Source of the DNA: a virus
Length of the DNA: 64,000 bases
Virus record (IMG/VR): IMGVR_UViG_3300016665_000619
Coordinates: 27,088 to 91,087 of that record
Reading direction: 5' to 3' (one strand)
Made by a program: the position numbers and the translations under genes. Positions 13,432 through 55,555 of the stretch are shown here, in pieces; within the stretch, counting starts at the first letter, position 1; each line of letters begins with the position of its first letter. The notes under the pieces are model-generated. The model made no database searches. It had not been told where the DNA came from and saw only the letters and a program-made list of their open reading frames with translations.

Positions 13432-13434
13432 AAT

Positions 13435-15063: not shown

Positions 15064-15067
15064 CAAG

Positions 15068-17771: not shown

Positions 17772-17790
17772 TTAGTATAAAGGATTTAAA

Positions 17791-20017: not shown

Positions 20018-20032
20018 TAAGCAGGCTATAAT

Positions 20033-21357: not shown

Positions 21358-21366
21358 GAGTTGTGT

Positions 21367-21675: not shown

Positions 21676-21683
21676 TATACTTT

Positions 21684-26723: not shown

Positions 26724-26726
26724 CAT

Positions 26727-30425: not shown

Positions 30426-30488
30426 TATTCTAGTTCTAAACATATCTCAACATATTAGCGAAAATATCAACATCACTAGGAGATAGTA

Positions 30489-31820: not shown

Positions 31821-31834
31821 TAAGGGAAATAGTA

Positions 31835-33016
31835 ATGACAAAGAAAACAGTTATTCTTCGTGGTCCAGTATTAACCGAAAGTGGTTATGGTGTTCATGCT
31901 CGTCAAGTAGCTCGTTGGCTGTTTGATTTAGCGGATAGAACTGGTAATATTGATGTTGTAACAGAACCTCTTCCTTGGGGTGCTACTCCTTGGCTTGTTG
32001 ATGCATATGCTCATGATGGTCTTGTAGGTCGTCTTATTCAAGCTGCTGGCAAGAGAGATAAATACGATGTATCCCTCCAGCTTCAACTTCCAAACGAATG
32101 GAATCCATTTCTTGCAGATTTTAATATTGGTTTAACTGCTGGTGTTGAAAGCGATGTTTGTAATCCTGCATGGATATCTGCCATTAATCGAATGGACTTA
32201 TTAATTGTTCCTTCAGAATTTGTTAAAAACGTTTTTGCAAATACTGGCGAAATCAAGACAAAGATTGCCGTTATTCCAGAAGCATTTATTGACTCTGTTG
32301 CAAAGCCAGAACTTCCACAGCTTGATTTGGAAGAAATAAAAACAGATACAAATTTCTTGGTATTTGGACAGATTACCGGCAATAATCCAGAAAATGACCG
32401 TAAGAATATGTTTTATACGGTTAAGTGGTTGTGTGAACAGTTTGCAGATAACTCAAACGTTGGAGTCGTTATTAAAACAAATACCGGTCGCCAAACAGTT
32501 GTAGACCGTATCAGAACAACCAATTTATTATCTCAACTCACATTAGAAGTCAAGAAGGGTGCAGAGTTTCCGAAGATTTATCTTCTTCATGGAGATATGT
32601 CAGACGATGAAGTGGCTGCTCTATATCGCCACCCAAAGATCAAGGCTCTTGTTGCTCCAACTCGTGGTGAAGGATTTGGTCTTCCTATTCTTGAAGCAGC
32701 AGCTTCTGGTCTTCCAGTTATTGCTACTGGTTGGAGTGCTCATACTGAGTTCCTTGGCAAAGGAAAGTATGTTAAGCTTGATTATCGTCTTGAGCAAATT
32801 CATCCAACCCGTGTAGATAATCAGATTTGGATGCCAAATGCCAAGTGGGCAAACGTTAAGGAAGATGATTTCAAGCATCGTGTAAAGAAGTTTGTAGAAA
32901 GTCCACAGATGCCCCAACAATGGGCTAAGGAACTATCCGAAACTCTTAAGCGTGAATATTCTTTTGAAGCAGTAGCGGCTCAATATACTGAACTTCTTAA
33001 GGACGTGTTAGGATGA
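31835..33016 (+). CDS. Glycosyltransferase family 4 (GT-B)
   Basis: SGYG.HAR, IVPS, DRKN, TRGEGFGLPILEAAASGLPVIATGWS.H.EF. Confidence 0.92.
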   Translation: MTKKTVILRGPVLTESGYGVHARQVARWLFDLADRTGNIDVVTEPLPWGATPWLVDAYAHDGLVGRLIQAAGKRDKYDVSLQLQLPNEWNPFLADFNIGLTAGVESDVCNPAWISAINRMDLLIVPSEFVKNVFANTGEIKTKIAVIPEAFIDSVAKPELPQLDLEEIKTDTNFLVFGQITGNNPENDRKNMFYTVKWLCEQFADNSNVGVVIKTNTGRQTVVDRIRTTNLLSQLTLEVKKGAEFPKIYLLHGDMSDDEVAALYRHPKIKALVAPTRGEGFGLPILEAAASGLPVIATGWSAHTEFLGKGKYVKLDYRLEQIHPTRVDNQIWMPNAKWANVKEDDFKHRVKKFVESPQMPQQWAKELSETLKREYSFEAVAAQYTELLKDVLG

Positions 33017-38588: not shown

Positions 38589-40430
38589 ATGGCTGACGAT
38601 AACAAAAAAAACGCTTTAAAACAAGTAAGACAACGCCGTTATCTTAATAAAGATTTTGATGCGTTACGTAATGATTTATTGGATTATGCCAGAAGTTATT
38701 TTCCAAATAATATAAGAGATTTTTCTGAGGCTAGTTTGGGCGGTTTGTTGCTGGATATGGCAGCATACGTAGGCGACGTTCAAAGCTACTATCTAGATCA
38801 TCAGTTTCATGAAAGCTTTCCGGAATCTTCCGTAGAGCCTAATAATATTGAAAGGCACTTGAGAAAAGCTGGCGTTCCGATAATAGGCGCTGCTCCAGCA
38901 GTTGTATCTGTTACCTTCTATATAAGAGTTCCAACAGATGGAACCAATACAGGAAATCCTGATGTTACTGCACTTCCAATTATAAAAGAAGGAACCGTTG
39001 TAAAATCAACTAGCGGTATAGAGTTTGAATTGACAGAAAATCTAGATTTCGCTGCACGTAGAAGTGACGGCTCATTGCAAGCGTCAGTTACTGTAGGAAC
39101 AGTTAATGCAAACAATATTCCCCAAAATTATATTTTAAGTCTTAATGGAGTTTGTATATCTGGTAAACGAGCAGTCGAGTCATTTAATGTTAGCACATTC
39201 ATTCCATATAGAAATATTACATTAACAAATCCTAATGTTACTGAAGTTATAAAAGTTGTAGATACTCTTGGAAATGAATATTATGAAGTAGAATCGCTAA
39301 CTCAAGATACAGTATATAAGCGAGTTACCAACATAAATTATGACAATAAAATGGTTCCAGAAAATATAGTTCCTATTCCGGCTCCATATCGTTTTATAAA
39401 AAATACTGCATTGCAAACTAGAACTACAACGTTGACATTTGGAGGCGGTTCAGCAAGCACAATTAATGACGACATAATTCCGGACCCAAGTGAATATTCA
39501 TTACCTTTATATGGCAAAAAAACGTTTAGCAGATTTACTATAAATCCAGGCAATTTATTGCAAACCACAACGTTTGGAGTTATTTCTGAAAACACAATTT
39601 TAAACATCACATATCGTTATGGCGGCGGATTAGAGCATAATATCGACCCAGAAACTATTAATGCAATTAGCTCATTAAACATATTCTTCCCACAAAATCC
39701 AAATCCAACAGTTGCTGCATTCGTAAGAAACTCAATTGATGTAACCAATCTAGAAGCAGCATCGGGCGGAGAAGACCCTCCAACTACAAATGAGTTAAAA
39801 AATAAAATACCAGCATTTCAAGGGATGCAGAACAGAATTGTTTCTAAACAAGATTTGCTAGCTAGAGTTTATACATTACCTTCAAATTTTGGACGTGTAT
39901 TCAGAGCAGCAATTGAACCAAACCCAAACAATCCCCTTTCTTCACAGCTTTTTATAATTTGCAGAAATCAAGATAATCAACTTGTAATTGCTCCGGATAC
40001 ACTTAAGAAAAATTTAGCAACGTATCTAAATCAATATCGTCTTATCTCTGATGCTATCGATATTTTAGATGCACGAATAATCAATATAACAGTAAAATTT
40101 ACTGCCGTTATTGACCCAACTCAAAACAGAGAACTCATTTTAAGAAACGTTCTTAATAAACTTAAAGATTACTTCAATATAAAGAATTTTGAAATCGATC
40201 AGCCAATTGTCATAAACGATATACAAAACATAATATTCAACACTGAAGGTGTTGCTTCTATTACCAATCTACAAATTGGGAATGCATATAATGTTATAGA
40301 TGGAAGAATATATTCTGATCAGCAGTTTGATGTTAACGCAAATACTAATCGTGGTATTATATTTGGACCTCCTGGATCCATGTTTGAACTAAAATATGCA
40401 GATTATGACATAATTGGCACAGCCGTTTGA
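38589..40430 (+). CDS. Baseplate wedge protein, T4 gp6/baseplate J-like
   Basis: YLNKDF..LR..L..YA..YFP...DFSEAS.GG..LDMAAYVGD..SYY.D.Q; YRYGGG; AASGGED; QNRIVSKQD. Confidence 0.88.
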   Translation: MADDNKKNALKQVRQRRYLNKDFDALRNDLLDYARSYFPNNIRDFSEASLGGLLLDMAAYVGDVQSYYLDHQFHESFPESSVEPNNIERHLRKAGVPIIGAAPAVVSVTFYIRVPTDGTNTGNPDVTALPIIKEGTVVKSTSGIEFELTENLDFAARRSDGSLQASVTVGTVNANNIPQNYILSLNGVCISGKRAVESFNVSTFIPYRNITLTNPNVTEVIKVVDTLGNEYYEVESLTQDTVYKRVTNINYDNKMVPENIVPIPAPYRFIKNTALQTRTTTLTFGGGSASTINDDIIPDPSEYSLPLYGKKTFSRFTINPGNLLQTTTFGVISENTILNITYRYGGGLEHNIDPETINAISSLNIFFPQNPNPTVAAFVRNSIDVTNLEAASGGEDPPTTNELKNKIPAFQGMQNRIVSKQDLLARVYTLPSNFGRVFRAAIEPNPNNPLSSQLFIICRNQDNQLVIAPDTLKKNLATYLNQYRLISDAIDILDARIINITVKFTAVIDPTQNRELILRNVLNKLKDYFNIKNFEIDQPIVINDIQNIIFNTEGVASITNLQIGNAYNVIDGRIYSDQQFDVNANTNRGIIFGPPGSMFELKYADYDIIGTAV

Positions 40431-40443: not shown

Positions 40444-42033
40444 ATGTATAGATTATTATCAGCAAGCAAAGACACCTACATAACCAACAAATATATTGCT
40501 GGTCAACGTTGCACTACCTCCAACGTAGGACAAGCTGCTACTTTAGACTTGTTCAAACTATATGATGAAACAACTGTATTAAGCGGCACAACTCCAGTTT
40601 CCGGAGTCATAGAGTTAACAAGATTACTGCTTCAGTTTGATTATGAACCATTACAGCAAATAACGTCTTCATTTTTGAACATTAATGATCCGAGCTTCAA
40701 GGCTTATCTATCTCTAAAAGACGTATACGGCGGTCAAACTACCCCTTCAAACTTTTCTATAAGGCTTATACCGCTTTCACAAAGCTGGGATGAAGGCAGG
40801 GGTTTTGACGTTGTTGCATTTCGTGATTTAGATACAGCAAATTTCCTTACCGCATCTGTTGTAACAGGCACTCCAAATGTTTGGTTCCTATCCGGAGCAG
40901 CAGAGTCTGGTTCTCTTGGGGCTGCTAATATTGATATCATAGTTTCTGGTAATCTTGGAACTGGAGCACAGGATTTAACGGTAACTCAACAGTTTGCTCG
41001 TGGTGATGAAAATCTAATGATGGACGTTACCACCCTTGTTAGTGCAGCGATAGCAGGTCAAATACCAAATTATGGCTGGAGATTGTCTTTTATAGATGCT
41101 CAAGAGCAGGACGACGTTACACGGTTTGTTAAGAGATTTGGTTCACGTCAAGCGAACAATGCAGACCTTCATCCACAACTTATTATCAAATATAATGATC
41201 AGTTAACTGATGACATGGGAGAAACTCTATTCAACGTATCTCAGAGTTTGTTTACGTTTAATCGTATTAATGGCGGCTATCAAAACTACTTCTCTGGAAG
41301 CGCAGAGATTACTGGAGCAAATAGTTTGCTTCTTAATCTATATGGAGCTAAGTATTTAACTTATTACACCTCCAGCTTCTCTCTATCTCATAGCGCAAGC
41401 ATTAATCATTTAACACGTAGCCTTTATTCTATAACCCAGAGTTTTCTTGGTAGTCAGTATCTAATTGGTAGCGTTCCACAAACCGGTATTTACTATGCAA
41501 ATGTTAACTTCAATACTGTTGAGAACACAACCTTGAAAGACTTCCTTACGGGCTCTACATCACAAGAGTTTACCTATGCATGGACCAGCCTTGATGGAAC
41601 TCTTACTTATGCCTCTGGCAAGACCCTCTACAAGCTCCCACAAGGCTCTATAAGCAACGTTGAAGAGAAGAACTGGGTAGTCAACATAACCAACCTTAAA
41701 CAAGAGTATAAAGCCTCTGAACAGGCAAGATTACGCATCTTTGCATTAGATTACAATACAGAGCAGAGCGCAAGTAGATTACCGCTTCAACCAAAGAGTG
41801 TCATATTGGAAAATCTGAAATGGAGATTGATCAACGCATATTCACGTAAGGTTATTGTTCCATTTGACAGTATAGCTACTCTTTGTTCATACGATGCAGA
41901 AGGCATGTATTTCGACCTTTGGATGCAAGACTTTGCAAAGGGAGAGGTCTATGAAATAGAGTTAATGATTACTTATGGTGGTAAGGATTACTTGATTAGT
42001 AATGCTGGATTCCGATTTAAGGTGATGCCATAA
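40444..42033 (+). CDS. Baseplate/tail-associated structural protein
   Basis: ASKDTYI, SQSWDEGRG, P.L.IKYND motifs; position within the baseplate module. Confidence 0.6.
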   Translation: MYRLLSASKDTYITNKYIAGQRCTTSNVGQAATLDLFKLYDETTVLSGTTPVSGVIELTRLLLQFDYEPLQQITSSFLNINDPSFKAYLSLKDVYGGQTTPSNFSIRLIPLSQSWDEGRGFDVVAFRDLDTANFLTASVVTGTPNVWFLSGAAESGSLGAANIDIIVSGNLGTGAQDLTVTQQFARGDENLMMDVTTLVSAAIAGQIPNYGWRLSFIDAQEQDDVTRFVKRFGSRQANNADLHPQLIIKYNDQLTDDMGETLFNVSQSLFTFNRINGGYQNYFSGSAEITGANSLLLNLYGAKYLTYYTSSFSLSHSASINHLTRSLYSITQSFLGSQYLIGSVPQTGIYYANVNFNTVENTTLKDFLTGSTSQEFTYAWTSLDGTLTYASGKTLYKLPQGSISNVEEKNWVVNITNLKQEYKASEQARLRIFALDYNTEQSASRLPLQPKSVILENLKWRLINAYSRKVIVPFDSIATLCSYDAEGMYFDLWMQDFAKGEVYEIELMITYGGKDYLISNAGFRFKVMP

Positions 42034-45000
42034 TGCCTATCAATAATACAAAAAATTTACAAAGAAATTCTCCGGCACTTTTTAAACCAATTATAGTTCG
42101 TGGCATTCAAGATCAAGGAGATGAAACTGTAAGTTTTAATTTATATCAAGCAAACGTTATCACAGATACTAGTATCGATAACACTTCTTCGTTTCGTTAT
42201 AATCCGCCAGAAACAGGTTTGCGTTCTTCACAACAATTAAACGTTGATTGGTCTGATTTATCAAATCATACTTTCTTTAACTCTGCACAGGTTAAGGTAA
42301 ATGTAGCTTTTGATAAAATTCAAAACAATTTCCCATTCGATGGAACTCAAAAAGAAACTGAAATTTATCTAGATAAACTAACCGGTTATGAAAAATACAT
42401 ATATGACAATTATCCAAAAAATAAAGGTTATTTGTATTTCTCAGGCACAGTAGCGCCATCTTCTGTAGCTTACGGAACATATGTAACTGTCGTCGATCAA
42501 GCGGGTGCCGCTTATACAAGCCTGTCTAAAAATACCGATGGTAGAAACATTATAAATCCAAAACTTAATCCAATGACCATAGAATATTGGTTATATGTTC
42601 CAAATCAGTCAAACAGCAATCAAGTTATATTGGACAAACATAGCGGTTCATTTGGATTTTTATCTGGGTTAAACTCGTCTATTTCAACAACAACTGCAAC
42701 TAACAGTTTTTATATATCTTCTGGTTCCGCATATGAACAACTTAGCATTTCATTTCCAAAGGGAGAATGGAATCACATTGCATGGGTATGGGACAGAACT
42801 CCAGGATACTATGGACTTTCTGCATATCTTAATGGCGAATATTATAGTTCCAGTTCTATGGCAGTAGAATTTGGGACAATTGATATTCCTAGTAATCTAT
42901 ACATTGGTTCTGGTAGTGCCTTATCGACCGTAGGATTCGTTCCAACAAATACGCTGTCCGGAGCTTTGGATGAATTGCGTATTTGGCATAGTGTTCGTTC
43001 TAAAGAAGAGATATATAACAATTATCAAAAATCAATATTTGCAGAACCGAAGCTTAAACTATATTATAAATTCAATGAACCATCCGGCAGCAATTCCACA
43101 ATTGTTATTGACGCTTCTTCTAACAGTTTGCATGGCAACTTAAGTGGAGATAGAAGTAGTTTTGTAAGACAAGTTGCAACTTCATCGATTGCTGGACCAG
43201 ATCCTGTCATATATGAACAGTTAGAACTTTGCCCTATATTGTTTGGAAATCAAGTTCAAGTATATAACTATAGAACTTCACTATACACAAGTGCTAGCAT
43301 ATATGACAATGAAAACCCAAATATAATAACCAAATTAGTTCCAAGACATTATTTCCTAGAAGGTCAGGTTGAGAATGCTTTGGAAACTGAAGAGGGAGAT
43401 ATAGTTGATAGCTTGACTTCCGGCACAGATCCACGTTCTACTGAATTAGGCGACACCCAAGTATTTCTATTATTTCTCTATACATGGGCAAAGTTTTTTG
43501 ATGAAATAAAGCTTTATACTCAGTCTTTTGTCGATAATCAATTTGTAGATTATAATAATATCGACACAGTTCCAGATCAGTTTCTACAGCAACTAGCAAG
43601 AAATCAAGGAATTGAACTTCCTCCAATGTTCACTGGAGCATCCGTCGCTCAATTTATAAATTCTCAAAACATACAAGATACGCCCGGCGTAAATCAATTT
43701 TCTCTACAATATATTCAAAACCAGATATGGAGAAGGATATTGATTAATTTGAGAGAAATTGTAACTTCAAAAGGCACAGTACATGCTGTAAAAACTTTCA
43801 TTAGGGCAACTGGAATAGACCCTGATCAAAATTTCCGTATACGAGAATATGGCGGTCCAACAAAACAAAATCTAGGTTTTGTAAGAGATAATCGTCATGA
43901 AATAGCAAGTGTTTTAAATTTTGTTTCTGGTGGTCGTATAACTAGTCCATATCTTTCTGGTTCTAGAACAGAGCCAGGATTTCCATATATTGCTGGAACC
44001 GCTTCTGATGGTCTTTACACTTCCGGATCATGGACTTATGAAGCCACATATAAATTTCCAAACAATACCACATATGATCGTAATCAAAGTTTGATAAGGT
44101 TTGTAACTACCGGTTCAAGTTTACCAAACAGTGGAGGATTAATAGCAAATCTAATAGCTTATTCTGGAAGCATTAGTTTTGCATCTACTACAACTAGCTC
44201 ATTAACTCTTTTCGTAAGATCAAATGACGACATATCGTCTCCGTATTTGACTTTGTATATGTCTGGAGTAAATCTATTTGATGGAGATAAATGGTATGTT
44301 TCATTTGGAAAACAGAGAAATGATGATGGGTTGAACTCCACCATTTCTAGCTCTTATTTCTTGAGAGTTGCTAAAAACGTTTATGGTGAAATATTTGAAA
44401 ATTATGTAACCAGTTCGTGGTTCAATGATTATCAAGGAGCCGGTAATAACGTATGGAACTCTTTGTCTTCTACAACAAATGCTAGCGGCTCTTATTTTAT
44501 AATAGGTTCAAGTTCTGTAGATTCAAGTATAAATAAATTTTTAAATCATTCTTCTGTAGTTCCTTCAATAGCCAGAGAAACTGGATTTAAAGGCACCGTA
44601 TCTCAAATAAGATTCTGGAGCAAAAATATATCTGAGGAAGAATATCCGGAACACGTTCGTAACTTTAAATCATTAGGCGTTCAAGATCCTCTTACAAACT
44701 TTAATTTCGTTACTTATAAAAGTAGTTCTTGGGAACGTTTACGTATTGATGCAAATACAGATCAAATTGTTACTCAATCGAACAATAGCGGTCAAATAAC
44801 AATATTTGACTTTTCTCAAAATAACTTACATTTGTCAGGCAATTTATTTCCAACTGGAAGTCAAATTATTAATCCTGAAAGATATTATTACAGCTTTATT
44901 TCTCCAAAATTTGATGAAGCTAGCACGACAAACAAAGTTCGCATACGTTCATTTGAACAATATGAAAACGTTCAAAATACACCTTGGGCACAAGTTGCTC

Positions 45001-45464
45001 CGGTATATGAAATACCAAGAAATGAGCAACCGACTGATAGCACGAAATTTACAATAGATTTCAGCGTTGTAGAAGCATTAAATCAAGATATAATTAATAT
45101 TTTTGCGACTTTGGACGAATTAGATAATGTATTAGGAGCTCCCGAACTAGTATTCTCTCCGGACTATCCTGGTCTTGAAAACTTGAGAAACGTTTATTTC
45201 AATAGATTAACTGACAAAATAAATCTCAAACAATTCTTCGAATTTTATAAATGGTTCGATACGAACATTGGAACGTTTGTATCTCAATTAATTCCTAAGA
45301 AGACAAAATATTTTGGAACAAATTTTGTAATTGAAAGCCATATGCTCGAACGTCCAAAGTTTGAATATTTGTTCAGCGAATTATATCTTGGAGACAGTAA
45401 TCGAACCGGGCTTAGAGATAGAATATTTCTGCAAATGTTTTTGGCAACTTTTGCCAAATATTAA
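42033..45464 (+). CDS. Large baseplate wedge-like protein with LamG domains
   Basis: WNHIAWV, GALDELRIW, LYYKFNE; QIWRRILINL..I..SKGT..AV (gp7/gpI-like wedge motif); IESHMLERPK. Confidence 0.7.
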   Translation: MPINNTKNLQRNSPALFKPIIVRGIQDQGDETVSFNLYQANVITDTSIDNTSSFRYNPPETGLRSSQQLNVDWSDLSNHTFFNSAQVKVNVAFDKIQNNFPFDGTQKETEIYLDKLTGYEKYIYDNYPKNKGYLYFSGTVAPSSVAYGTYVTVVDQAGAAYTSLSKNTDGRNIINPKLNPMTIEYWLYVPNQSNSNQVILDKHSGSFGFLSGLNSSISTTTATNSFYISSGSAYEQLSISFPKGEWNHIAWVWDRTPGYYGLSAYLNGEYYSSSSMAVEFGTIDIPSNLYIGSGSALSTVGFVPTNTLSGALDELRIWHSVRSKEEIYNNYQKSIFAEPKLKLYYKFNEPSGSNSTIVIDASSNSLHGNLSGDRSSFVRQVATSSIAGPDPVIYEQLELCPILFGNQVQVYNYRTSLYTSASIYDNENPNIITKLVPRHYFLEGQVENALETEEGDIVDSLTSGTDPRSTELGDTQVFLLFLYTWAKFFDEIKLYTQSFVDNQFVDYNNIDTVPDQFLQQLARNQGIELPPMFTGASVAQFINSQNIQDTPGVNQFSLQYIQNQIWRRILINLREIVTSKGTVHAVKTFIRATGIDPDQNFRIREYGGPTKQNLGFVRDNRHEIASVLNFVSGGRITSPYLSGSRTEPGFPYIAGTASDGLYTSGSWTYEATYKFPNNTTYDRNQSLIRFVTTGSSLPNSGGLIANLIAYSGSISFASTTTSSLTLFVRSNDDISSPYLTLYMSGVNLFDGDKWYVSFGKQRNDDGLNSTISSSYFLRVAKNVYGEIFENYVTSSWFNDYQGAGNNVWNSLSSTTNASGSYFIIGSSSVDSSINKFLNHSSVVPSIARETGFKGTVSQIRFWSKNISEEEYPEHVRNFKSLGVQDPLTNFNFVTYKSSSWERLRIDANTDQIVTQSNNSGQITIFDFSQNNLHLSGNLFPTGSQIINPERYYYSFISPKFDEASTTNKVRIRSFEQYENVQNTPWAQVAPVYEIPRNEQPTDSTKFTIDFSVVEALNQDIINIFATLDELDNVLGAPELVFSPDYPGLENLRNVYFNRLTDKINLKQFFEFYKWFDTNIGTFVSQLIPKKTKYFGTNFVIESHMLERPKFEYLFSELYLGDSNRTGLRDRIFLQMFLATFAKY

Positions 45465-45506
45465 AAAAACGTTTTGCAATATATCTATACTATAATCAGG
45501 TGACAT

Positions 45507-46451
45507 ATGTCTTTTAATGAAACGCAAGGATTAAGTGGTACTGAATTTTTTCCATATGATGATACCACAATAATTTCACCGGCTGAACTTCGAATAGGTT
45601 CAATGCCGGAAGATGTTATATCCATATATATGCAATCTGGTTCTGGCATGGACACATCTGCTTATGATAAGCTGAGACAAGGCGTAGAACTTAGAAGAGC
45701 AAATCATGTTTACGGAACAACTCAACCAAAACTGTGGGCTGGAAACTTATTACATCGTCCATTAGAATTTATTCCATATGGTGAAGCTAGAACTTGGACA
45801 GAATACGAAAACACAACCGAATATTACGATAACACAATTCCATTTGATCCTGTTTATTATATAAATTCTCAGCAAAATGGGATTATTACATATCCATTTC
45901 CAATCTACTTTAATGATGGACCTCAACAGGGTCAAGAAGCCATAATAGAGCCCCTTACAATTCCATTTAGAGCCAATACCTCATATATTGAAGGAGCATA
46001 TCCAGTTCATCGTCCAAAAGGAAATTTGGAAGATGGTAATCCTACCCAGGACATTCCTCAGTCAAACAATAGAGTGTTACAGTTTATAGAATACAATACT
46101 CCATTAACTCCAAATCCATTCCTTGATGCAGGTCAACAATATATTGGTGATGGTCCAATTCAAGATGATATTATAATTGAAGGTTATGTTGACTTCAATT
46201 TGAGACTTGGCGATCCTTTCGATGATACGGAAACATCGGAAATAGTGGATCAACTTTTGATTACTACATCTTCATTAAATGGTCTTGATTTCATACAACA
46301 ACTTAAGCTTCTTCACATCAATTTAGACGATGATATTAGAGAAACTTATACTCAAAAATCAGCAACAGCAGGTTATACTGTATACGGACCAGAACAAGGG
46401 CGTTATGGAACTGATAGCGTTACGTTTTCTGGATGGAGCAGAGGCTCATGA
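45507..46451 (+). CDS. Hypothetical structural protein
   Basis: 314 aa; AGGTG SD; C-terminal KSATAGY...GTDSV.F.G. Confidence 0.55.
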   Translation: MSFNETQGLSGTEFFPYDDTTIISPAELRIGSMPEDVISIYMQSGSGMDTSAYDKLRQGVELRRANHVYGTTQPKLWAGNLLHRPLEFIPYGEARTWTEYENTTEYYDNTIPFDPVYYINSQQNGIITYPFPIYFNDGPQQGQEAIIEPLTIPFRANTSYIEGAYPVHRPKGNLEDGNPTQDIPQSNNRVLQFIEYNTPLTPNPFLDAGQQYIGDGPIQDDIIIEGYVDFNLRLGDPFDDTETSEIVDQLLITTSSLNGLDFIQQLKLLHINLDDDIRETYTQKSATAGYTVYGPEQGRYGTDSVTFSGWSRGS

Positions 46452-49324
46452 GCAGACAAGAAAAAAAGACAAGAATAAGAGTAGTTCCGCCAAAGCTTCA
46501 GCTTCGTGGTCAAGACGCTCTTACAGGCTCTTATCCAACTAATGTAAGATTTTCTTTAGACGGTAGAACTGGAAATTATAAGATTGGTTACAATGACATT
46601 CAGACTGTAGTTTTCGGTTCACGTTCTAATGGAACATCATGGCAAGATAACATGATTGGATATTGGACCATGCAAAGATTAGGTCCGACTTCAAATGCAA
46701 CAGGAAGCGTTACATTTGAATCAGAAATATCTGCTCGTTCCGGAATTAATGTGTATCCATACATGGATTACAACTTTGTTCCAGATAGCAAATTTCTTTA
46801 TTTTGGCGTTTCCGAATCGTATGCACACGAAGGAAAAGCATATAATGTTAATTTAAACGAAGCAAATCCTACCAATGGCATAGAATATCCAACTATAATT
46901 CCAAATAAATCATATGATTTTAAGCCAAATTATAGTGCATATGGAGTTTTAGAAGGCGATCCTATGATTGCTATAAATTCCACATATCCATTGCTTGCTC
47001 AAAATTTAGATTCGAATAAAAATTTATTTGCATTTACAGGATCTTTTGGTTCCGTATATCCAAAATGCACGTATCAACCTTTTACAATTGCAGGGTGGTT
47101 CTATTACAACAATACCGCAAATAACGCATCAAATGCTAATATATTAGTAGCTGGTCCATGTAGAAAAGAGCCGTGGAATATAGAAAATGTAGATTATTAT
47201 GCTGCGGCAGTAGAAGATGGATCTGGCGGACTAAGCTTTCAAGTTGCTTTTATAAGCTCAAGCTATTCAACAAAATCTATGCAACTTGATACAAACTCAA
47301 TTTCTAACTTGGTTGGAAAATGGTTTCATTTTGCTTTTACATATGATGGTGCCACCTCCACTTCTGATGTTGTGGCCGACGACAACACGATTAAAGTATA
47401 TGTTGATGGAAATAGAGTAGCCCCACTAAATTTCTCAGATAATGGAACCGGCTTTTCTGGTTACAACACTAATGATCCAATATATTATGGAATATCAAGC
47501 ACGTATCTAGCTTGTTTAAATTCTGATGTAACAGGTTCTATTGCTGAAATGGCTTTATTTAACCGAGTCTTAACTCAGCAAGAAATTGTAGAACTATATG
47601 CTTGCCAAGTTCCATGGAACAAAAAGCGACGTATAATAGCAGGGACTTCTATAGACCTCGATAATGATCCATATCCGGTAGATGCTGAAGAATATATGAC
47701 CACATTCAATAGAGATGGCATGTTAGTTACCGGCTCTATTGTTAAAGGAGTTGGAGATAATCCACAATGGGTTCATTTCTCCCCAGGTCAAGAAATGCAG
47801 CCGTTCCACGATGAAAAACAATTTGCTGCTGATGCCAAAGGATTGACTATTGAAAATCCATTCTTTGCTACTGGCAGTGCAGAGACATTAGTTGGAGAAG
47901 GATTTAGTTCTCCACTTTGGAGTAAAAATAAAATAGTAATTCCATTACCAGTTGTTTCAGCTTCTTCAATAGGTCCAGTAAAGGGAAAGTTTAGTTCTTC
48001 TCCAAGTGCTTTTGAGAACACTTACAATTCTCCAATGGGCTATTACAATTTTGATAGGAAGGTCTGGGAGCCTATTGGAGTTGGTTTAAATTTTAACACC
48101 TCAACTTTAAGAAATGCAATAGAATATATTCCAATTGGATTTTTCAATGGGCTTCTTTTTATCGAAAATGCCGCACCTCTTGCAAATCTACATAATATGG
48201 GATATTGTGGTAGCGATTTTGGATTTCCATATCATCCAAAATATCATGCGACCGGTTCTCAGACGTTAGATATGTCTCAATATATAACAGAACCATTCTT
48301 GTTTGAAAAGGCTGTTATAACTTTAGGCGAAGTTTCATGGGAAATTGGTTCAATTAATTTATCAAATGTTACAAATAATATCACAGGCTCTATAAATACT
48401 TTCTTTATATTGAATCAAAGAAGAAATCAAAGTTTCTCATATTCAAAAGGAATCGTCGCAAAAGAATATGGAGAATCGTCTTTTAGCGAAAAAACATTAA
48501 ATACAACGTTGCCATGCTCAATACCTTTGTCAAAAGATCAATATGATTCCTCGGAAGTTACATATGTTGATACAATAAGAGATATTCTTGGATTTTCTCA
48601 AATTTATTCCTTTGCCAGTGGATCATTAAATAACTTATATTACCAAGATGAAGATCCATTATATGGACTAACCGAAAAAACAAGTTCATTAGCACAAATA
48701 ATTCCGGTTACTTCAAATGATATCGTCTTAGAAAGTCAGACCAGTAACGTTAGTGGTGCAAACTGGAACGTATCTAACATGAGTTTGTCCATGAGCTTAT
48801 GTGTGCCTTCTTTTGGAAGTTTGCCTCCTAAAAACATAACAGGACTAAATAGAATAACGACAAGATATAACGGAACATCTGCAACAACTGATGCCGCCTT
48901 TGTTGGGTTTGATGGCTCAAGAACCGGTTTAAACTTTACACAGTTGTCCTCTCAAGGACTTAATAATGATTTATTTGCTGGGACCAATGATGAACCAGCA
49001 TATACTGCTTATTCCAAAACTGTTGCTCCAAATGCGACGTTTAACTTTACAAACGAAAAGCATAAAATTAATCCATATATAATATATCCAACAGATCGTC
49101 TGATAATAGGTTGTCAAGCTCCTGTAAGCATTAATCCTGTTACTTATACAACGGCGTATGGATCGAGTCCGGTTGCAGAATCTGTTTTGACATTTAATCC
49201 AGACACAAATGAAAATCGTTATCAAATTACCATATATGGTAGCTATATAAAACAAAATAAAGAATATAACGATGGAACGAATCAGCTTTTATCATCAGAA
49301 ACCATCCACGAGGTCATAGAATAA
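46448..49324 (+). CDS. LamG-domain structural protein
   Basis: FTIAGW, KWFHFAFTYDG, VYVDG, IAEMALFNRVLT.QEI.LY; ATGA overlap at 46448. Confidence 0.7.
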   Translation: MSRQEKKTRIRVVPPKLQLRGQDALTGSYPTNVRFSLDGRTGNYKIGYNDIQTVVFGSRSNGTSWQDNMIGYWTMQRLGPTSNATGSVTFESEISARSGINVYPYMDYNFVPDSKFLYFGVSESYAHEGKAYNVNLNEANPTNGIEYPTIIPNKSYDFKPNYSAYGVLEGDPMIAINSTYPLLAQNLDSNKNLFAFTGSFGSVYPKCTYQPFTIAGWFYYNNTANNASNANILVAGPCRKEPWNIENVDYYAAAVEDGSGGLSFQVAFISSSYSTKSMQLDTNSISNLVGKWFHFAFTYDGATSTSDVVADDNTIKVYVDGNRVAPLNFSDNGTGFSGYNTNDPIYYGISSTYLACLNSDVTGSIAEMALFNRVLTQQEIVELYACQVPWNKKRRIIAGTSIDLDNDPYPVDAEEYMTTFNRDGMLVTGSIVKGVGDNPQWVHFSPGQEMQPFHDEKQFAADAKGLTIENPFFATGSAETLVGEGFSSPLWSKNKIVIPLPVVSASSIGPVKGKFSSSPSAFENTYNSPMGYYNFDRKVWEPIGVGLNFNTSTLRNAIEYIPIGFFNGLLFIENAAPLANLHNMGYCGSDFGFPYHPKYHATGSQTLDMSQYITEPFLFEKAVITLGEVSWEIGSINLSNVTNNITGSINTFFILNQRRNQSFSYSKGIVAKEYGESSFSEKTLNTTLPCSIPLSKDQYDSSEVTYVDTIRDILGFSQIYSFASGSLNNLYYQDEDPLYGLTEKTSSLAQIIPVTSNDIVLESQTSNVSGANWNVSNMSLSMSLCVPSFGSLPPKNITGLNRITTRYNGTSATTDAAFVGFDGSRTGLNFTQLSSQGLNNDLFAGTNDEPAYTAYSKTVAPNATFNFTNEKHKINPYIIYPTDRLIIGCQAPVSINPVTYTTAYGSSPVAESVLTFNPDTNENRYQITIYGSYIKQNKEYNDGTNQLLSSETIHEVIE

Positions 49325-49325
49325 T

Positions 49326-52106
49326 ATGCCTACCCTTGATCAATTTGAAACCGAACCATACGTCACCTACTCTGGGTCATATACAGATCAAGTTTATTAT
49401 GGTTCAGTCTTTAACGACAACTATTCCACAAATCGCAGTGTTGTAGCTCTTAAAACAACGGGCATTATATCATCATCTTTTTTTGCTAAAGATTTTGGTC
49501 GTTCAGAACAGTTTGGCTATGTTTCTGGTGCATACGTATCAAGTCGCACGCAAAATTTCGCAACTAATTACTATAGCACAGAGTTAATATATAATTCTTT
49601 AACTCCCTCTCCAATTGGTATTGTAAATGCCAACAATCAATTGTTGCCATATTTGGCAACAACTTCAAGTTGGAAACAAATATTTTCTTCAAGTTTAGAT
49701 GCTGCACCAAGTATATTTCGACCAAGGTTGACAGAAAATGCAGCCCATGTGTTTTTAACAGCTCAAGCAACGGATATTCCAAATCCAAGTGGACCAGGAA
49801 ATTTCCTAACTGTTCCAATTAAATCTTTTGCCAATACAAATTGGCTATATGAGTTTCCGTTCCAATCAAAATACAAAAAGCTTGAAAAATATTTTGGTAC
49901 TGCTCTAGATAACGTTGCAATTGACGTTGATCTATATTCTGGTAGTTTTATTTCGCCGCCACTTAAAACAAATCAACTTGGTTCTTTGTTTTATGCATAT
50001 GGCGATGGGACATTTAAAAGATATGTGCAGTATTCACAAATTTGGCACGCTTTTGGCACAAATGTCACAAATGTGCCTGAACATTATCACGTTCAAACAA
50101 AAACTTATAATAACTTACAGAAAATATACTATAGCAATTTTTCAGAAACTAACGTCAGTTCAGCGTATGTTGCATTTGGACAATATGGAACGATTATAAC
50201 AAGTTCTTCTGGATTATCGAATACTTGGAAAACCATATGTGCTGAACACGGAGATGATTCTTCCATTTCTCCAAGCCCATATGAAAATGCAATACAAATT
50301 GATTCGTGGCCAAGTGTCCCAACCGGCTCAATTAGAGACGCTTTGGCTGTTGGATATTATAATGGATCCACGACCGGAAACCACTTGCAATGGCTTTTGA
50401 TTGTAGAAGATGGAAATACGGGTTATGGAAAAGTTGTTTGCTCAAAAGTTGCAACACATGGAACAAACAAAATTCCAACTAAAAATCAATGGGAATATAT
50501 ACACATTGAAACTGGAATTAATCTATATCAATATGCTACAAAAAATCCTGGGGGCTTGCAAGTAAGCGAAATTACTCCAAGAGAAATATGTGTTGTTGGC
50601 GAATATGAGGATGAATTTGCAGTTAAAAGCGGATATATTGGATATGCCGTAGCATCAGTAAATTCAACAACGACAGGAACAATTTGGCGTAGAAACACAG
50701 GAGGTTCAGTAGCAAGCAAAACAGACGTTGTTTGGTATTCAGTAACTTCAGGCAATTCGTTCACGGGTGCTACTCCTACCCCAAATTATTTTTGGGTTTG
50801 TGGAGCTGACAATGGTGTAAGTCCTGCTGTTGGTATTATCGCTCGTGCATTGGCGGCTGCACCCGAGTATAATCAAAATTATTCAAATATGACACCAGCA
50901 TCCCCATCTCCACTTCCAATAACTCGAGCAATAACATATGACCAACATATTGGCGGCGCAAATGGAAAACTAATATGCGTGGGAGATAATGGTTTAATAT
51001 TAACAAGCACTAACTTGGGAACAACATGGACCCAGCAAACTCCTGCCGGTGGTTATTCTGGTAATTTTGTCGATGTTAAAGTCGTATATGATCAAGACGG
51101 GACCAACACTCAGTTGCAGTCTGGATATTATGTTATAGTTGGTGATGACGGCGAAATACAATACAGCACAGATGCTGGGGTAACTTGGACTAAAAGCGTA
51201 ACTCAATATCCAAATAGAATTTCCGGTTCTTCTGGCTTGGGTTCTTCTTTGAATTCTTTTGGAACAAAAAACATACAATACACTTCTACAAACAGAAATA
51301 ATTCAATTAAAAATTATTATGCTGGTTCGATAGAAAGAGTATATAATCCTTCATTAGACGAGCCGCCATTAACAATGGCTGTAGGAGGCGTCAGCACTCA
51401 CGATTTTAATGAAAAAAAATATAACAATGGAATATTTGACGCATATGACACAGTTTTGGTTTGTAAATTAGCAGATGCCTCTGGAAGTTGGGACAATCGG
51501 GCAGAAGATTTCTTGCCGCACTATTTGAATCCTCTTTATTCTCCTATGCAAAATGCAAAATATTGCAAGCCAACAAATTATGACTATAACAAATGTTTCT
51601 TTGGTTATGGGGATGGTTTTAGTTTAGATTTAACAAACTGGCAATATGGAGGAGTCCTTGATGTTGGTAAAAAAGGAAAGACACCAAGTTTCCTTGACTG
51701 GAGTCCTTATGATGTTTATGGGCACGTCGATGTGCCACAGTTTAATTTATATGGACCACAAATACGTGGCTGGAAATATGGACTATATAGCGGAGTTAAT
51801 GTTTCTACAAACGCAATATATAGACGTGGGAGATATGGACAGTTTAGAGACAGACTAGAACAAAGAATATTCACAAAATATATTACGATGAATGGTCCAA
51901 ATCCATACACTTATCCTATAAGTTTTGAAAAGATGACTTCTGATGGACCAATAAATGTTACGTTTGTTACGGGAACATTAATATATTCTCAATCAGTTGA
52001 TTATGTAACAGCAACAAATCCAAGTTATAATCCATATGATAGCGGTATTTATGATTACGAATATCGTAGTGGACAACCCTTCTTCGATAGAGGGAACGAG
52101 GATTGA
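49326..52106 (+). CDS. Structural protein with BNR/Asp-box-like beta-propeller repeats (candidate receptor-binding)
   Basis: VGDNGLILTSTNLGTTWT, VGDDGEIQYSTDAGVTWT, FGQYGTIITSSSG...TW. Confidence 0.65.
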   Translation: MPTLDQFETEPYVTYSGSYTDQVYYGSVFNDNYSTNRSVVALKTTGIISSSFFAKDFGRSEQFGYVSGAYVSSRTQNFATNYYSTELIYNSLTPSPIGIVNANNQLLPYLATTSSWKQIFSSSLDAAPSIFRPRLTENAAHVFLTAQATDIPNPSGPGNFLTVPIKSFANTNWLYEFPFQSKYKKLEKYFGTALDNVAIDVDLYSGSFISPPLKTNQLGSLFYAYGDGTFKRYVQYSQIWHAFGTNVTNVPEHYHVQTKTYNNLQKIYYSNFSETNVSSAYVAFGQYGTIITSSSGLSNTWKTICAEHGDDSSISPSPYENAIQIDSWPSVPTGSIRDALAVGYYNGSTTGNHLQWLLIVEDGNTGYGKVVCSKVATHGTNKIPTKNQWEYIHIETGINLYQYATKNPGGLQVSEITPREICVVGEYEDEFAVKSGYIGYAVASVNSTTTGTIWRRNTGGSVASKTDVVWYSVTSGNSFTGATPTPNYFWVCGADNGVSPAVGIIARALAAAPEYNQNYSNMTPASPSPLPITRAITYDQHIGGANGKLICVGDNGLILTSTNLGTTWTQQTPAGGYSGNFVDVKVVYDQDGTNTQLQSGYYVIVGDDGEIQYSTDAGVTWTKSVTQYPNRISGSSGLGSSLNSFGTKNIQYTSTNRNNSIKNYYAGSIERVYNPSLDEPPLTMAVGGVSTHDFNEKKYNNGIFDAYDTVLVCKLADASGSWDNRAEDFLPHYLNPLYSPMQNAKYCKPTNYDYNKCFFGYGDGFSLDLTNWQYGGVLDVGKKGKTPSFLDWSPYDVYGHVDVPQFNLYGPQIRGWKYGLYSGVNVSTNAIYRRGRYGQFRDRLEQRIFTKYITMNGPNPYTYPISFEKMTSDGPINVTFVTGTLIYSQSVDYVTATNPSYNPYDSGIYDYEYRSGQPFFDRGNED

Positions 52107-52107
52107 T

Positions 52108-53073
52108 ATGGCTGGATTATTAGACCCGAAGACCCGAGTATTAGATACCATTATTACAAACGAAGGCAGAAGACAAGCTGCTTCCGGAAAAATGAATATC
52201 GAATATGTTTCCTTTAGCGATGCAAGCGCCATATACGCTCTAGATACTCTTGTCTCTGGCGGACTAGACTTCACATCAAGAATAACTTTTGAAGCCGGTA
52301 ATTTACCCCAGGACAGCATTGTTTTTGAAACAGATGATAGCGGCAATCTATTGGCAAACTTTGTAGATGGAGACAGCGGATATCGAGTAAGAGCCGGTAA
52401 GATATTTCAAGATTTAACTGGTTCTACCAGGTTTCAAGCGCCATTTATAAGCGGCTCACAGTTTGCCTCATTAGCAACAACTCTATTAAGTTCATCCCTT
52501 CAAAATTTTCAAAAGCTTTCAATACTAGCTAGCCCAGATCCATTGGATATAAATTTTAACGAATTTATTATCGACAAAACACAACTAACTTATAAAATAA
52601 CAGATAACAATCCAATATCTTCTGCCGGAATTCAAGAGATTGATGTTGATAAAATAGAAAGCATATTTTTTGACAAAAGACTTTCTCATGTGCCAAATTT
52701 TCAATATTTGCCGCCAATAAACAAACCAAGAACAGGCAGAAATAATTCCATGGTTCTTGGAACATACAAGAACTTAAATCAAGCTCCATATGTTTCATAT
52801 GCGGATTTAGCTTCAGAGTTAAGTGCTTCTCAGAAAGCTGGATACAGTTATGATGTTGAGTTTATTGAAACTTCTCGTCAAAATAACTTATTATGCCAAT
52901 TTTTCGAAGTATACAATGATGGAATGAAAAAACTAGATGTTATTGATTTTGGTATATTTTCTCCGGATCAAAATGGCATTGCACATCATGTGTTTTTCGT
53001 TGGAAAAGTATTTATAGACAGCAATAACACTCCAACTTTTGTTAACATGTTTACATTGGTTTGGGAACTATAG
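52108..53073 (+). CDS. Conserved tail/baseplate-region protein
   Basis: Start ATG 52108 (GAGG SD); N-terminal LD.I.T.EGR motif shared with 61929..62642. Confidence 0.6.
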   Translation: MAGLLDPKTRVLDTIITNEGRRQAASGKMNIEYVSFSDASAIYALDTLVSGGLDFTSRITFEAGNLPQDSIVFETDDSGNLLANFVDGDSGYRVRAGKIFQDLTGSTRFQAPFISGSQFASLATTLLSSSLQNFQKLSILASPDPLDINFNEFIIDKTQLTYKITDNNPISSAGIQEIDVDKIESIFFDKRLSHVPNFQYLPPINKPRTGRNNSMVLGTYKNLNQAPYVSYADLASELSASQKAGYSYDVEFIETSRQNNLLCQFFEVYNDGMKKLDVIDFGIFSPDQNGIAHHVFFVGKVFIDSNNTPTFVNMFTLVWEL

Positions 53074-53080
53074 GAACAAT

Positions 53081-55537
53081 ATGGTATTACCTGTTTTAAA
53101 TAAACAAACTCCACAAACAAAAGTTATTAAGCAAGACACAGTAAACCCTGTGCTAACAAAAGTCATAAGTGGTCTAGCTGTATATCGACTAACTTATTCT
53201 TTTAATCCAAAACTTGCAGAAGCTTTAAAAGCAGTATCTCTAACCATTAGTGTATCTACCGAACTTGGCAACAACAGCAGAAAGCCGCAAATAATCAAAG
53301 GCTCAAACCCTGAGACTATCGTAGACAACATTCTGCAACAAGTTAATATATATCAAAATTTATCATATGGCAGAAACAACTATGCATTCTCGGTAAGAAG
53401 AGATATTCGCAAATATTATTCTGCAAATGATATCAAAAATACAGATTTATATACTCGAGTTTTTGTTAATGAAAAAGTAGGTGCATTAAATGCACTCAAT
53501 CAAAATGCAAACACAAACAACTTAAATATAAATTCGAATCTATTGTTAAATGTTGCTCCGAGCAAGTTTAATTTAAGAAAACAGCTTAATAACTTAAGGT
53601 ATTCTCAAAAAATTGATCCAGCGAGCTTGTATATTGGAGGAACAAATGCGATTGTTCCACTTACAAAAACGTTTAATGGAGTTAAACCTCTTCCAAACTT
53701 TACTCAAAGTGAATTGTTTAGAAATAATTCTAGAGTAAAAAACGTTATATCTGCTGCGTTATCTAAAACGACTATTGATACTCAAGGAAGTCTTCCAGAA
53801 GATACGTATATTACCACAATTAAAAAAGTGGCAACAGACACAATTAACGTTGCCGACAAATTGATTATACCAGTCAATATTCTTGGAAAATCTGATTTCA
53901 AATTAGTGTTCGAACTATTTGATATCAATGAAAAAAGAGTTCAAAAGTTTGAAACTTTTGTATCTCATAACACCAACCTTAATACTTTGTTTATAACAAT
54001 TCCTCCAAGAATATCTAAAAAAAATAACGGCGGCACATCTGGTAACACATTATTGATAGAGCAACTAGATCCTTTCGCAAAGGGAATTGAAGTCTACAGA
54101 AGAACTTTATTTTCTCAAGAGAATGAACCTATAGCAAATTATAAAAAAATAGCAGACATTCCTCTAACAGCAGGAATGGATCCGTATACTTTCAAAGATA
54201 ACGTTGTAACAAATAATGATATTATCTATCGTTTTATTCCATATAATGAAGACAAATCTTTGGCTTCTGTATTTAGCACAATATTGATACCAAATGAAAG
54301 TCGTTCTATTCCAAGAAAAGTAACAAAAAGAAGAAGTTTTTGTGTTTTAGATTATTCTACTGATGTTGATTCTTTAATTGTTAAAGCATCAGACGTTCCG
54401 GTTGAAGCCGTCGCTATTTGTTTCTACAGAAGAAATAAGACTATTAATGAGAAAAATTTTACTCGTATTTCAAACATAATTCGTGTTCAATCAAACAGCA
54501 TATTGCCTATGAGATTGGTTGATCAGAAAGTAAAAAAATACAATGTTTATGAATATAAGATTGGCATAATCTATCTGGACGGAATTGAGCAATTAGCTCC
54601 ACAACTGTTAACGGTAGAATATAGACCTATCGATAAAAACATAGCAACTGCAAACATTGTAAATCTTCAAAACTCTACGTATGGAAATGGTATACCAGAC
54701 GTTACGTTCAATGTAACTTATAGCGTTAACAATAATCAAGCAGAAGATTTGAAAAAACTATTAACTGCTCAAAATTTACTAGCAGAATATGGACAAGATA
54801 TAATAGATAACAAACAAAAATTACAAAATTTGTTTGCCTATAAAGTTTTAAGACTCAATCAAACGACAAGTGAAATAGAAGATTTTGGAGTTATAACTGA
54901 TACAGTTTTTTCTGATAGAAAACAAGGAATATCTAAAGGAATTAAACCTTTGGTACCTGGGGTTCAATACAAATATACGATATCGACATTGTTAAGAGAT
55001 CCGGAAACGTTATATCCTACAAGCCATAGAACTGTTGCTAAAACAGTTAAAGAAAGCAGAAAAAATCTTAATCTTGTAAAGACATATGAATTTTATCCAT
55101 ATGAATGGGTTCAGCCAGTAACTTTTAGAAATGGGACATTATATACTGATAGTTCTATAGTTAGAAGTTATCCTCAAACGTTACCTTCATTTGAATTTGG
55201 ACCGGTAGTTGATATAAAAGAGATTACAATATCAGTTGCCGAAGATTTACCAAAAATTACAAATGCTGTTGCAAATGCTATTAGAAATAGAGGATGTTTG
55301 CTCGAATGGAACGTAGTTGGAAACAATAAAAAAATCGATTATTTCATTATAACTCGTGATATGTCTGGTTTGAAAACTATAGTTGGTGCAGCTCACAGTA
55401 TAACTTCTACAGGAAATTACTTGTTTCTAGATCAGTTTAACAATAACGAAAAAGGTCCAGCTACATACTTTATAACTCCTGTATATTACAATGATATACA
55501 AGGCACTGCATCACAAACAAACAGAATTGTCATATAA
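53081..55537 (+). CDS. Hypothetical structural protein with Fn3-like repeats
   Basis: Repeated VYRR...F.D..V....Y.Y beta-sandwich patterns; AGGA SD before 53081. Confidence 0.55.
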   Translation: MVLPVLNKQTPQTKVIKQDTVNPVLTKVISGLAVYRLTYSFNPKLAEALKAVSLTISVSTELGNNSRKPQIIKGSNPETIVDNILQQVNIYQNLSYGRNNYAFSVRRDIRKYYSANDIKNTDLYTRVFVNEKVGALNALNQNANTNNLNINSNLLLNVAPSKFNLRKQLNNLRYSQKIDPASLYIGGTNAIVPLTKTFNGVKPLPNFTQSELFRNNSRVKNVISAALSKTTIDTQGSLPEDTYITTIKKVATDTINVADKLIIPVNILGKSDFKLVFELFDINEKRVQKFETFVSHNTNLNTLFITIPPRISKKNNGGTSGNTLLIEQLDPFAKGIEVYRRTLFSQENEPIANYKKIADIPLTAGMDPYTFKDNVVTNNDIIYRFIPYNEDKSLASVFSTILIPNESRSIPRKVTKRRSFCVLDYSTDVDSLIVKASDVPVEAVAICFYRRNKTINEKNFTRISNIIRVQSNSILPMRLVDQKVKKYNVYEYKIGIIYLDGIEQLAPQLLTVEYRPIDKNIATANIVNLQNSTYGNGIPDVTFNVTYSVNNNQAEDLKKLLTAQNLLAEYGQDIIDNKQKLQNLFAYKVLRLNQTTSEIEDFGVITDTVFSDRKQGISKGIKPLVPGVQYKYTISTLLRDPETLYPTSHRTVAKTVKESRKNLNLVKTYEFYPYEWVQPVTFRNGTLYTDSSIVRSYPQTLPSFEFGPVVDIKEITISVAEDLPKITNAVANAIRNRGCLLEWNVVGNNKKIDYFIITRDMSGLKTIVGAAHSITSTGNYLFLDQFNNNEKGPATYFITPVYYNDIQGTASQTNRIVI

Positions 55538-55555
55538 TACTATTTATAAAAGCCT

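Follow-up and report, generated by a model that had tools for sequence, protein, structure and literature searches.

The [S/T]-G-S-rich baseplate locus

The 64,000-nucleotide stretch of DNA analyzed here (the window) comprises bases 27088 to 91087 of the 91-kb IMG/VR record IMGVR_UViG_3300016665_000619 (G000) and carries all of its long open reading frames (ORFs) on the plus strand. CheckV rates the 91-kb record as 24% complete, which implies a genome of jumbo size; its source is an uncultured, giant, aquatic, T4-like phage. Our subject is the tripeptide [S/T]-G-S (hereafter [ST]GS), which is markedly overrepresented in a run of baseplate and fibre proteins of this phage, and its possible recognition by a glycosyltransferase (GT) encoded in the same window.

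The locus is anchored by ORF 38589..40430, which encodes a gp6-like inner baseplate wedge protein (PHROG 219) and served as internal control. ORF 38114 gives a gp25-like match that is weak and under Pfam's cutoff. Since ORF 38589 is of the gp6 type, the finding concerns the stretch of baseplate genes that follows gp6. The first of these, adjoining the gp6-like gene, encodes baseplate protein E (40444..42033, 529 amino acids [aa]), and the next ones encode baseplate protein B (42033..45464, 1143 aa, with a LamG_3 domain at residues 178-327), a 314-aa protein, baseplate protein C (46433..49324, 963 aa, LamG_3 at residues 215-385), the baseplate or fibre protein D (49326..52106, 926 aa), and protein F (52036..53073, 345 aa). 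Two large proteins of unknown fold (832 and 1471 aa, ORFs 53039 and 55556) are encoded thereafter, at 53039..59971. At the other end of the window, positions 1..1713 hold the C-terminal 570 residues of a 933-aa fibre-like protein with SHAEG-type repeats.

Per-ORF expectations were derived from 2000 shuffles of each protein. Protein B contains 10 [ST]GS versus 1.5 expected (residues 204, 230, 293, 351, 642, 664, 693, 711, 818, and 941), protein C nine (eight TGS and one SGS) versus 1.4, and ORF 1..1713 12 versus 2.9, counts that were reached in 0 of 2000 shuffles in each case; over the full 933-aa ORF to which 1..1713 belongs, the figure is 21 versus 4.7. The excess is smaller in D (5 versus 1.5, p 0.02), E (3 versus 0.65, p 0.025), and F (2 versus 0.3, p 0.04). 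No [ST]GS occurs in the gp6-like protein (0.27 expected) or in the products of ORFs 53039 (0.32) and 55556 (0.85), the last two together having 1.2 expected, and one occurs in that of ORF 59982. A preliminary description, made from the letters of the sequence, had counted eight TGS in protein C (its ORF 46448), about 10 [ST]GS in B, about 12 in ORF 1..1713, none in 55556 or 53081 (here ORF 53039), and one in 59982; all of these counts were reproduced, and the enrichment it described holds against shuffled sequences.

Taken together, E, B, C, D, and F (40444-53073) contain 29 [ST]GS versus 5.4 expected (5.4x), while the same residues in other orders ([ST]SG, G[ST]S, GS[ST], and S[ST]G) stand at 0.6-1.5x. 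In a comparison set of six further large proteins from the window, two of unknown fold and four that are known or putative structural proteins, [ST]GS itself stands at 1.1x. The top-ranking overrepresented tripeptides of ORFs 42033 and 46433 are SGS and TGS (Poisson p 5e-6 and 2e-7). Under a dipeptide-preserving first-order Markov null, 29 sites were observed versus 14.6 expected (p 6e-4). Codons vary between sites, with serines specified by both TCN and AGY, so the motif is not a DNA repeat and it is the peptide that is under selection. The shuffles, the permutations, the Markov null, and the codon inspection led us to reject composition, low complexity, and DNA repeats as causes; paralogy of the enriched proteins was rejected because BLASTP detected no significant similarity among E, B, C, D, and F. 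The approximately fivefold [ST]GS excess in the outer baseplate and fibre proteins is real. In general, the sites are scattered and nonperiodic, as the preliminary description had it; this does not extend to ORF 1..1713, where some of them fall within an internal VEVTGSL repeat in an S/G-rich region.

Residue preferences of the motif

Residue preferences were determined from sites pooled over four divergent phages (104 versus 20 expected). They define the consensus [ST]-[G>A,S]-S, in which -2, -1, and +3 are hydrophobic. Position 1 is S (5.8x) or T (4.4x), with N, D, A, and G at 0.9x or less; position 2 is G (5.2x) and less often A (2.7x) or S (2.4x), the remaining residues being at about 1x; and position 3 is S (5.2x), followed by A (2.2x), T (1.7x), N (0.9x), and D (0.4x). 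In the flanks, F, Y, or A is preferred at -2, A at -1, and W, A, Y, or F at +3, whereas charged residues, G, and P are disfavoured, which bears out the hydrophobic flanking noted in the preliminary description. NGS, DGS, AGS, and GGS show no enrichment, with NGS, DGS, and [ST]GD at 1.3x or less versus 5.2x for [ST]GS. T4 structural proteins contain 2 [ST]GS versus 8.5 expected, and a general trait of T4-type baseplates was rejected as an explanation on this basis.

Spread of the motif among related phages

The excess is replicated in the same syntenic proteins of more than 100 independent related contigs, including all the relatives found through protein C. Across the clade, E-like proteins carry 4-9 sites versus about 1 expected, while the gp6-like protein has none in almost all relatives examined and one in a few, and relatives of the 53039 and 55556 proteins have none, with single-site exceptions. 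A second large clade shows 828 [ST]GS versus 152 expected when pooled. Two cultured phages, Microcystis phage Mel-JY01 and Flavobacterium phage immuto, which have gp6, E, and B homologues in common with the window, are both [ST]GS enriched. The motif-rich radiation spans genomes from about 160 kb to jumbo genomes of more than 350 kb and Bacteroidota and cyanobacterial hosts, and is mostly uncultured. Searches of GenBank phages by tblastn with protein C and with the product of ORF 36112 gave no match, and a search with the immuto fibre repeat region returned immuto itself only. The lineage may overlap the "moraphages," for which four core glycosyltransferase orthogroups have been reported (PMC12619734).

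In immuto, the annotated tail sheath (NC_055915.1 147026-149155) has 7 [ST]GS versus 1.3 expected and a 373-aa hypothetical protein (135075-136196) has 12 versus 1.3, and the motif therefore extends beyond the baseplate in this phage.

Co-variation of the motif with GT4-2

Two adjacent GT genes precede the baseplate locus on the plus strand, GT4-1 (30489..31820) and GT4-2 (31817..33016), both matching Pfam Glycos_transf_1 (32.9 and 36.7 bits, respectively; gathering cutoff, 26.4). GT4-1 is core to the clade, and its closest PDB sequence is that of PBCV-1 B736L, a weak match (E 2e-4). GT4-2 is predicted to be soluble and is our candidate reader of the motif; its residues E285 and E293 form an E-x7-E pair that is invariant across six homologues, down to 32% identity. 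Relatives of GT4-2 were found in at least 595 IMG/VR contigs, and in the best 80 of these the order GT4-1, GT4-2, about 6-7 kb of other sequence, gp6 (with no sites), E-like, and B-like gene recurs. Among GenBank phages, homologues of GT4-2 occur only in immuto and Mel-JY01. The second large clade does not carry the GT pair near the baseplate; in G015, the only complete genome of this clade, GT4-2 is about 90 kb distant.

In two records the counterpart of GT4-1 is in pieces. In G002 (54503-57063, minus strand), a close relative, its homologue matches in three pieces, one covering residues 27-443 and the other two being short copies of the N terminus, located about 0.3 and 1.2 kb upstream and each containing a TGA; this points to a 5'-end insertion or duplication in the gene. 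In Mel-JY01 (PP395634.1 83441-86300), the equivalent of GT4-1 consists of two ORFs directly before the GT4-2 homologue, the first of 190 aa without a Pfam match and the second of 302 aa with Glycos_transf_1; either a split gene or a frameshift introduced in sequencing could account for this.

The one informative contrast is with LR756508, a metagenomic phage whose complete genome of 484 kb includes gp6-, E-, and B-like genes. Neither protein nor profile searches detected GT4-2 in it. With enriched ORFs defined as those of at least 200 aa at p<0.003, LR756508 has 0 of 233, as opposed to 8 of 101 in Mel-JY01, 5 of 90 in immuto, 5 of 98 in G015, 15 of 142 in G006, and 3 of 59 in the window's own record, G000, all five of which carry GT4-2. 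The co-occurrence of motif enrichment and GT4 genes envisaged in the preliminary description was therefore observed, on a single contrast. In a quick gp6 tree, LR756508 is sister to the window's clade (SH-like approximate likelihood ratio test support, 93) and lies within the motif-rich radiation, so that its state with respect to both motif and GT4-2 reads as a loss. Of 26 Mel-JY01 genes common to immuto, G015, and the window's clade, LR756508 has 23 under the coverage filter, and the portal is also there, in pieces; only PhoH and GT4-2 are truly missing. On these sequence comparisons, GT4-2 is the only candidate that co-varies with the motif.

No relative without the GT pair was found in the window's own clade, where contigs without it end close to the baseplate, and no motif-rich relative clearly without a GT was found among those examined. 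Enrichment in relatives devoid of the GT cluster, which the preliminary description had named as counterevidence, was thus not clearly encountered, with the reservation that one motif-rich genome, G014, is incomplete and that the GT-less side consists of one genome only.

The T4-type portal match of LR756508 (LR756508.1 145772-149527) is in three separated pieces, covering residues 3-227, 239-422, and 362-501, an arrangement that introns, inteins, or inserted genes would fit.

The sugar gene cluster

The GT pair closes a sugar region (14548-33016) encoded on the plus strand. Immediately before it, at 28468..30425, are genes for an NAD-dependent epimerase/reductase and a GDP-mannose 4,6-dehydratase (gmd), which adjoin the GT pair in most relatives. 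The preceding sugar-nucleotide and decoration cassette (14548..28471) encodes a weak GT2-like protein (under Pfam's cutoff), a UDP-glucose dehydrogenase-like protein, methyltransferases, hexapeptide acyltransferases, and PhyH, WbqC, and DegT proteins; the region includes two DegT proteins and a PglD-like acyltransferase. The middle of the cassette (17791-28471) has the lowest GC content, 0.31-0.33, and relatives that possess the flanking GT2-like, gmd, epimerase, and GT4 genes carry almost nothing that corresponds to it, which marks it as a swappable module.

A hydrophobicity scan found no membrane segment in any protein of the 14548-33016 region, and no flippase, polymerase, or lipid-carrier priming enzyme is therefore encoded there. 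Direct transfer to a cytoplasmic acceptor fits this gene content better than a self-sufficient surface-polysaccharide pathway, although a surface-polysaccharide route that uses host machinery is possible. As for DNA as a target, digested immuto DNA yielded dA, dC, and dT plus fdPreQ1 replacing dG, with no sugar-modified nucleoside reported (PMC10516641). This weakens DNA glycosylation as the role of the GT pair, since immuto carries a homologous one.

The GT pair is followed at 33013-33423 by a 136-aa ORF that is conserved in all relatives. Its product has a strongly hydrophobic segment (Kyte-Doolittle 19-residue maximum, 2.87); no other protein encoded close to the sugar genes is of the membrane type.

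Conservation and turnover of sites

In an alignment of protein B with 15 homologues (48-89% identity), at least 73% of the sequences retain [ST][GAS]S at each of eight sites out of 10. Several of these sites have variable surroundings, and the motif columns have a conservation of 0.82-0.85 versus about 0.6 in the flanks. The fixed sites of B switch among SGS, SAS, SSS, and TSS (e.g., SGS in 7 of 15 and SAS in 7 of 15). This exchange of G, A, and S argues against a strict requirement for a positive-phi glycine. Among 44 homologues of protein C, with identities reaching as low as about 30%, [ST][GAS]S is retained by 95-100% at sites 31, 480, and 607 and by 68% at site 433. All three sites of E are conserved in close relatives and both sites of F are invariant in six relatives; in D, site positions turn over among relatives.

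In the second, diverged clade, the share of common site positions tracks overall identity, from 0.2 at 30% identity to 0.67 at 60%. B-like proteins of this sister clade have 7-17 sites versus about 2 expected despite the turnover, and a density that is held while positions change points to selection on motif density. The preliminary description had invoked convergent selection. The motif is indeed under selection and found in nonhomologous proteins, but most sites in the window's own clade are, by sequence comparison, inherited at fixed positions rather than convergent, and turnover with maintained density is confined to the more diverged sister clades.

A candidate glycosylation sequon and its alternatives

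Overall, the motif behaves like a short tag that is read by some factor. We propose that [ST]-[G>A,S]-S between hydrophobic residues may be a recognition motif on outward-facing baseplate, fibre, and, in relatives, sheath proteins, which would be in use across a very large clade of aquatic T4-like phages. The enzyme most likely to read it would be the soluble GT4-2 (31817-33016), acting together with the adjacent GT4-1 (30489-31820). GT4-2 would O-glycosylate one of the two hydroxyl residues of the motif while still in the cytoplasm of the host, with GDP-mannose-derived sugars from the adjacent gmd and epimerase genes as putative donors and the strain-specific cassette varying the sugars. O-glycosylation of the motif by the GT4 pair is in our estimation a tentative proposal, its chances somewhat short of even. 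Three points in this proposal are inferred: the existence of any modification on the motif, its nature as a sugar, and the identity of the enzyme as GT4-2. The preliminary description had seen in the tripeptide an acceptor site for the phage GTs; the order specificity of the motif, its restriction to a subset of nonhomologous virion proteins, the selection on it, and its co-variation with ORF 31817 support this reading in part; under it, the sites would be glycosylated and the GT4 pair would act on protein.

By extension, the aquatic T4-like radiation would coat baseplate, fibres, and sheath with phage-made glycans by means of an ancient, dedicated GT4 and an [ST]-[G/A/S]-S sequon, with a swappable cassette that diversifies their composition, i.e., a virion "serotype" system analogous to bacterial O-antigens. 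We consider this wider scheme conceivable but speculative.

Several observations weigh against glycosylation by the GT4 pair. The large 53039 and 55556 proteins have no [ST]GS excess, and neither does the exposed coiled-coil fibre encoded at 3845 (4 versus 2.5). The segments around C31, C433, and C480 are highly conserved yet unfolded in the AlphaFold2 (AF2) monomer (predicted local distance difference test [pLDDT] score, <50). As such, they may, as far as the model goes, be intersubunit interfaces rather than exposed loops. The LR756508 contrast consists of one GT4-2-less genome and hence a single loss, placed by a quick tree whose outgroup branch is long, and LR756508 keeps a GT4-1 homologue and a slight overall [ST]GS excess (1.4x). 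G014, which is 70% complete, is motif-rich on a contig without GT4-2. In addition, the GT cluster could act instead on host surface glycans, and the strong positional conservation and the hydrophobic flanks fit a structural role equally well.

Such a structural role is the alternative that survives best. It holds that this phage lineage prefers [ST]-G-S followed by a hydrophobic residue for terminating beta-strands in a tight turn or bulge within beta-sandwich and fibre domains, with no modification, and that the link with GT4-2 reflects shared ancestry. The classical type II' two-residue hairpin loop has the sequence G-[STN], and [ST]-G-S is a strand-end motif of WD40 blades; where our models are confident, local sequence and strand-turn-strand context are the same. 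The AF2 models of C (mean pLDDT, 64) are usable in parts and those of B (mean, 43) for two beta domains only. At B204 and B230, the S/T ends a strand, G-S forms a two-residue hairpin loop, and a hydrophobic residue opens the next strand (strands 197-204/207-214 and 221-230/233-242; pLDDT, 76-86), and at C367 and C651 the motif is at a strand start. C607 lies between short helical turns, and B293, by alignment to solved LamG domains, in the loop after a conserved "IG" strand. Strand-turn context is seen at B204, B230, C367, and C651, while half of the sites are in regions with a pLDDT of <50. Foldseek with the model of C retrieved a generic LamG/jelly-roll fold only, with no identification of the C-terminal domain. 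The hydrophobic residues at -2, -1, and +3, the invariance of many sites over deep divergence, and the presence of the motif within obvious fibre shaft repeats (immuto gp101 and window ORF 1..1713) also speak for structure.

However, the turn formers N-G-S and D-G-S are not enriched, T, N, and D are rejected at position 3, and Gly swaps with Ala and Ser at fixed sites. Of the features of a generic two-residue hairpin, the strand-loop-strand location is present but the obligatory Gly and the tolerance of N or D are not. WD40 and hairpin motifs are periodic and fold specific, whereas the present motif crosses folds, excludes N and D, and occurs in a linker. The latter belongs to the Mel-JY01 tail-associated lysin, which has four TGS in 25 residues of a Pro-rich, presumably disordered linker to which a beta-turn explanation is inapplicable. 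Nor does a structural role account for the depletion in T4, for the lack of enriched ORFs in LR756508 in spite of its homologous gp6, E-like, and B-like proteins, or for the density kept through positional turnover. We therefore hold a purely structural motif to be doubtful, if still to be reckoned with.

A second alternative keeps the tag but assigns it to another factor, i.e., a different modifying enzyme, or else an assembly chaperone or subunit partner with affinity for the strand-turn element. A reader is indicated, though not named, by the residue specificity and by the excess in nonhomologous proteins, the conserved sites in segments that fold only in complex would suit a binding partner, and with about a quarter of the genome at hand (CheckV, 24%) many candidate readers are out of view. 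Against this, only PhoH and GT4-2 match the motif distribution among the 26 screened genes, and no other such enzyme was seen; we rate it as unlikely. Finally, an artefact of composition, low complexity, or multiple testing, to which the somewhat S- and G-rich enriched proteins and the internal repeats of ORF 1..1713 might have given rise, is refuted by the shuffles, the same-composition permutations, the first-order Markov null, and the replication in >100 contigs, and has practically no probability left.

Relation to known glycosylation systems and significance

GtfA and GtfB are two adjacent GT4-type proteins that carry out cytoplasmic O-linked N-acetylglucosaminylation of Ser in S-A-S/S-x-S contexts. 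Their acceptors are long disordered serine-rich repeat arrays, whereas the sites described here are isolated and mostly in folded beta domains; Pfam identified no GtfB-type domain in either phage GT4 protein, and the enriched proteins contain no long Ser-rich array. Chloroviruses and giant viruses use their own GDP-mannose 4,6-dehydratase and cytoplasmic GTs to build virion-protein glycans. These are eukaryotic viruses, however, and the glycans are on Asn at atypical sequons in a different capsid architecture.

In the TibC/Aah system, a cytoplasmic GT-B enzyme heptosylates many serines of the beta-rich adhesins TibA and AIDA-I, and at the mapped sites Ser, not Thr, is used and is followed by G-G or A-A (N-S-G-G, T-S-A-A) (PMC4358343). 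The likeness lies in a Ser before small residues in beta-rich surface proteins and in a cytoplasmic GT. The TibC/Aah enzyme is a dodecameric heptosyltransferase with an iron finger and its acceptor a beta-helix repeat (PMC4358343), whereas here there are Pfam Glycos_transf_1 (GT4) matches only, jelly-roll or fibre acceptors, and probably a GDP-sugar donor. The soluble GTs encoded by mycobacteriophages have been proposed to act in the host cytoplasm and to decorate structural proteins of the phage that encodes them (Freeman et al. 2023, cited by PMC12619734), much as we propose here. In that account, the mycobacteriophage glycans are at the C-terminal ends of capsid and tail-tube subunits, as opposed to internal scattered tripeptides of baseplate, fibre, and (in immuto) sheath proteins; hosts and phage lineage are unrelated, and glycans are predicted from sequence in the present case. 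Autotransporter hyperglycosylation at Ser-Gly and Ser-Ala turns (PMC4358343) and mycobacteriophage virion glycosylation (cited in PMC12619734) are the closest mechanistic precedents, the enzymes and the acceptor layout differing from both.

If the glycosylation reading is correct, virion glycosylation would be common in abundant aquatic phages rather than a curiosity of mycobacteriophages and giant viruses, and a readable sequon would make glycosylated proteins predictable from their sequences. The large, long-unexplained "lipopolysaccharide-like" sugar clusters of aquatic phage genomes would likewise acquire a function. Phages would vary their own surface chemistry, with a bearing on host recognition, aggregation, and resistance to grazing or degradation. 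Should the motif be purely structural, it would still amount to a sequence rule for beta-turns that is unusually sharp and specific to one lineage. Two cultured phages carry both motif and enzyme, which opens the question to direct test.

Other features of the window

The coiled-coil fibre protein encoded at 3845-8224 (1459 aa) resembles a YadA stalk and has strongly repeated tripeptides of its own, EAS, STE, AGD, and SLR. Between the fibre genes and the sugar cluster, at 8417-9595 and 12292-14400, are genes for a Prim-Pol primase/polymerase, an IMPDH/GMP-reductase-family enzyme, and a PD-(D/E)XK nuclease. The order of nuclease followed by sugar cluster is shared by immuto.

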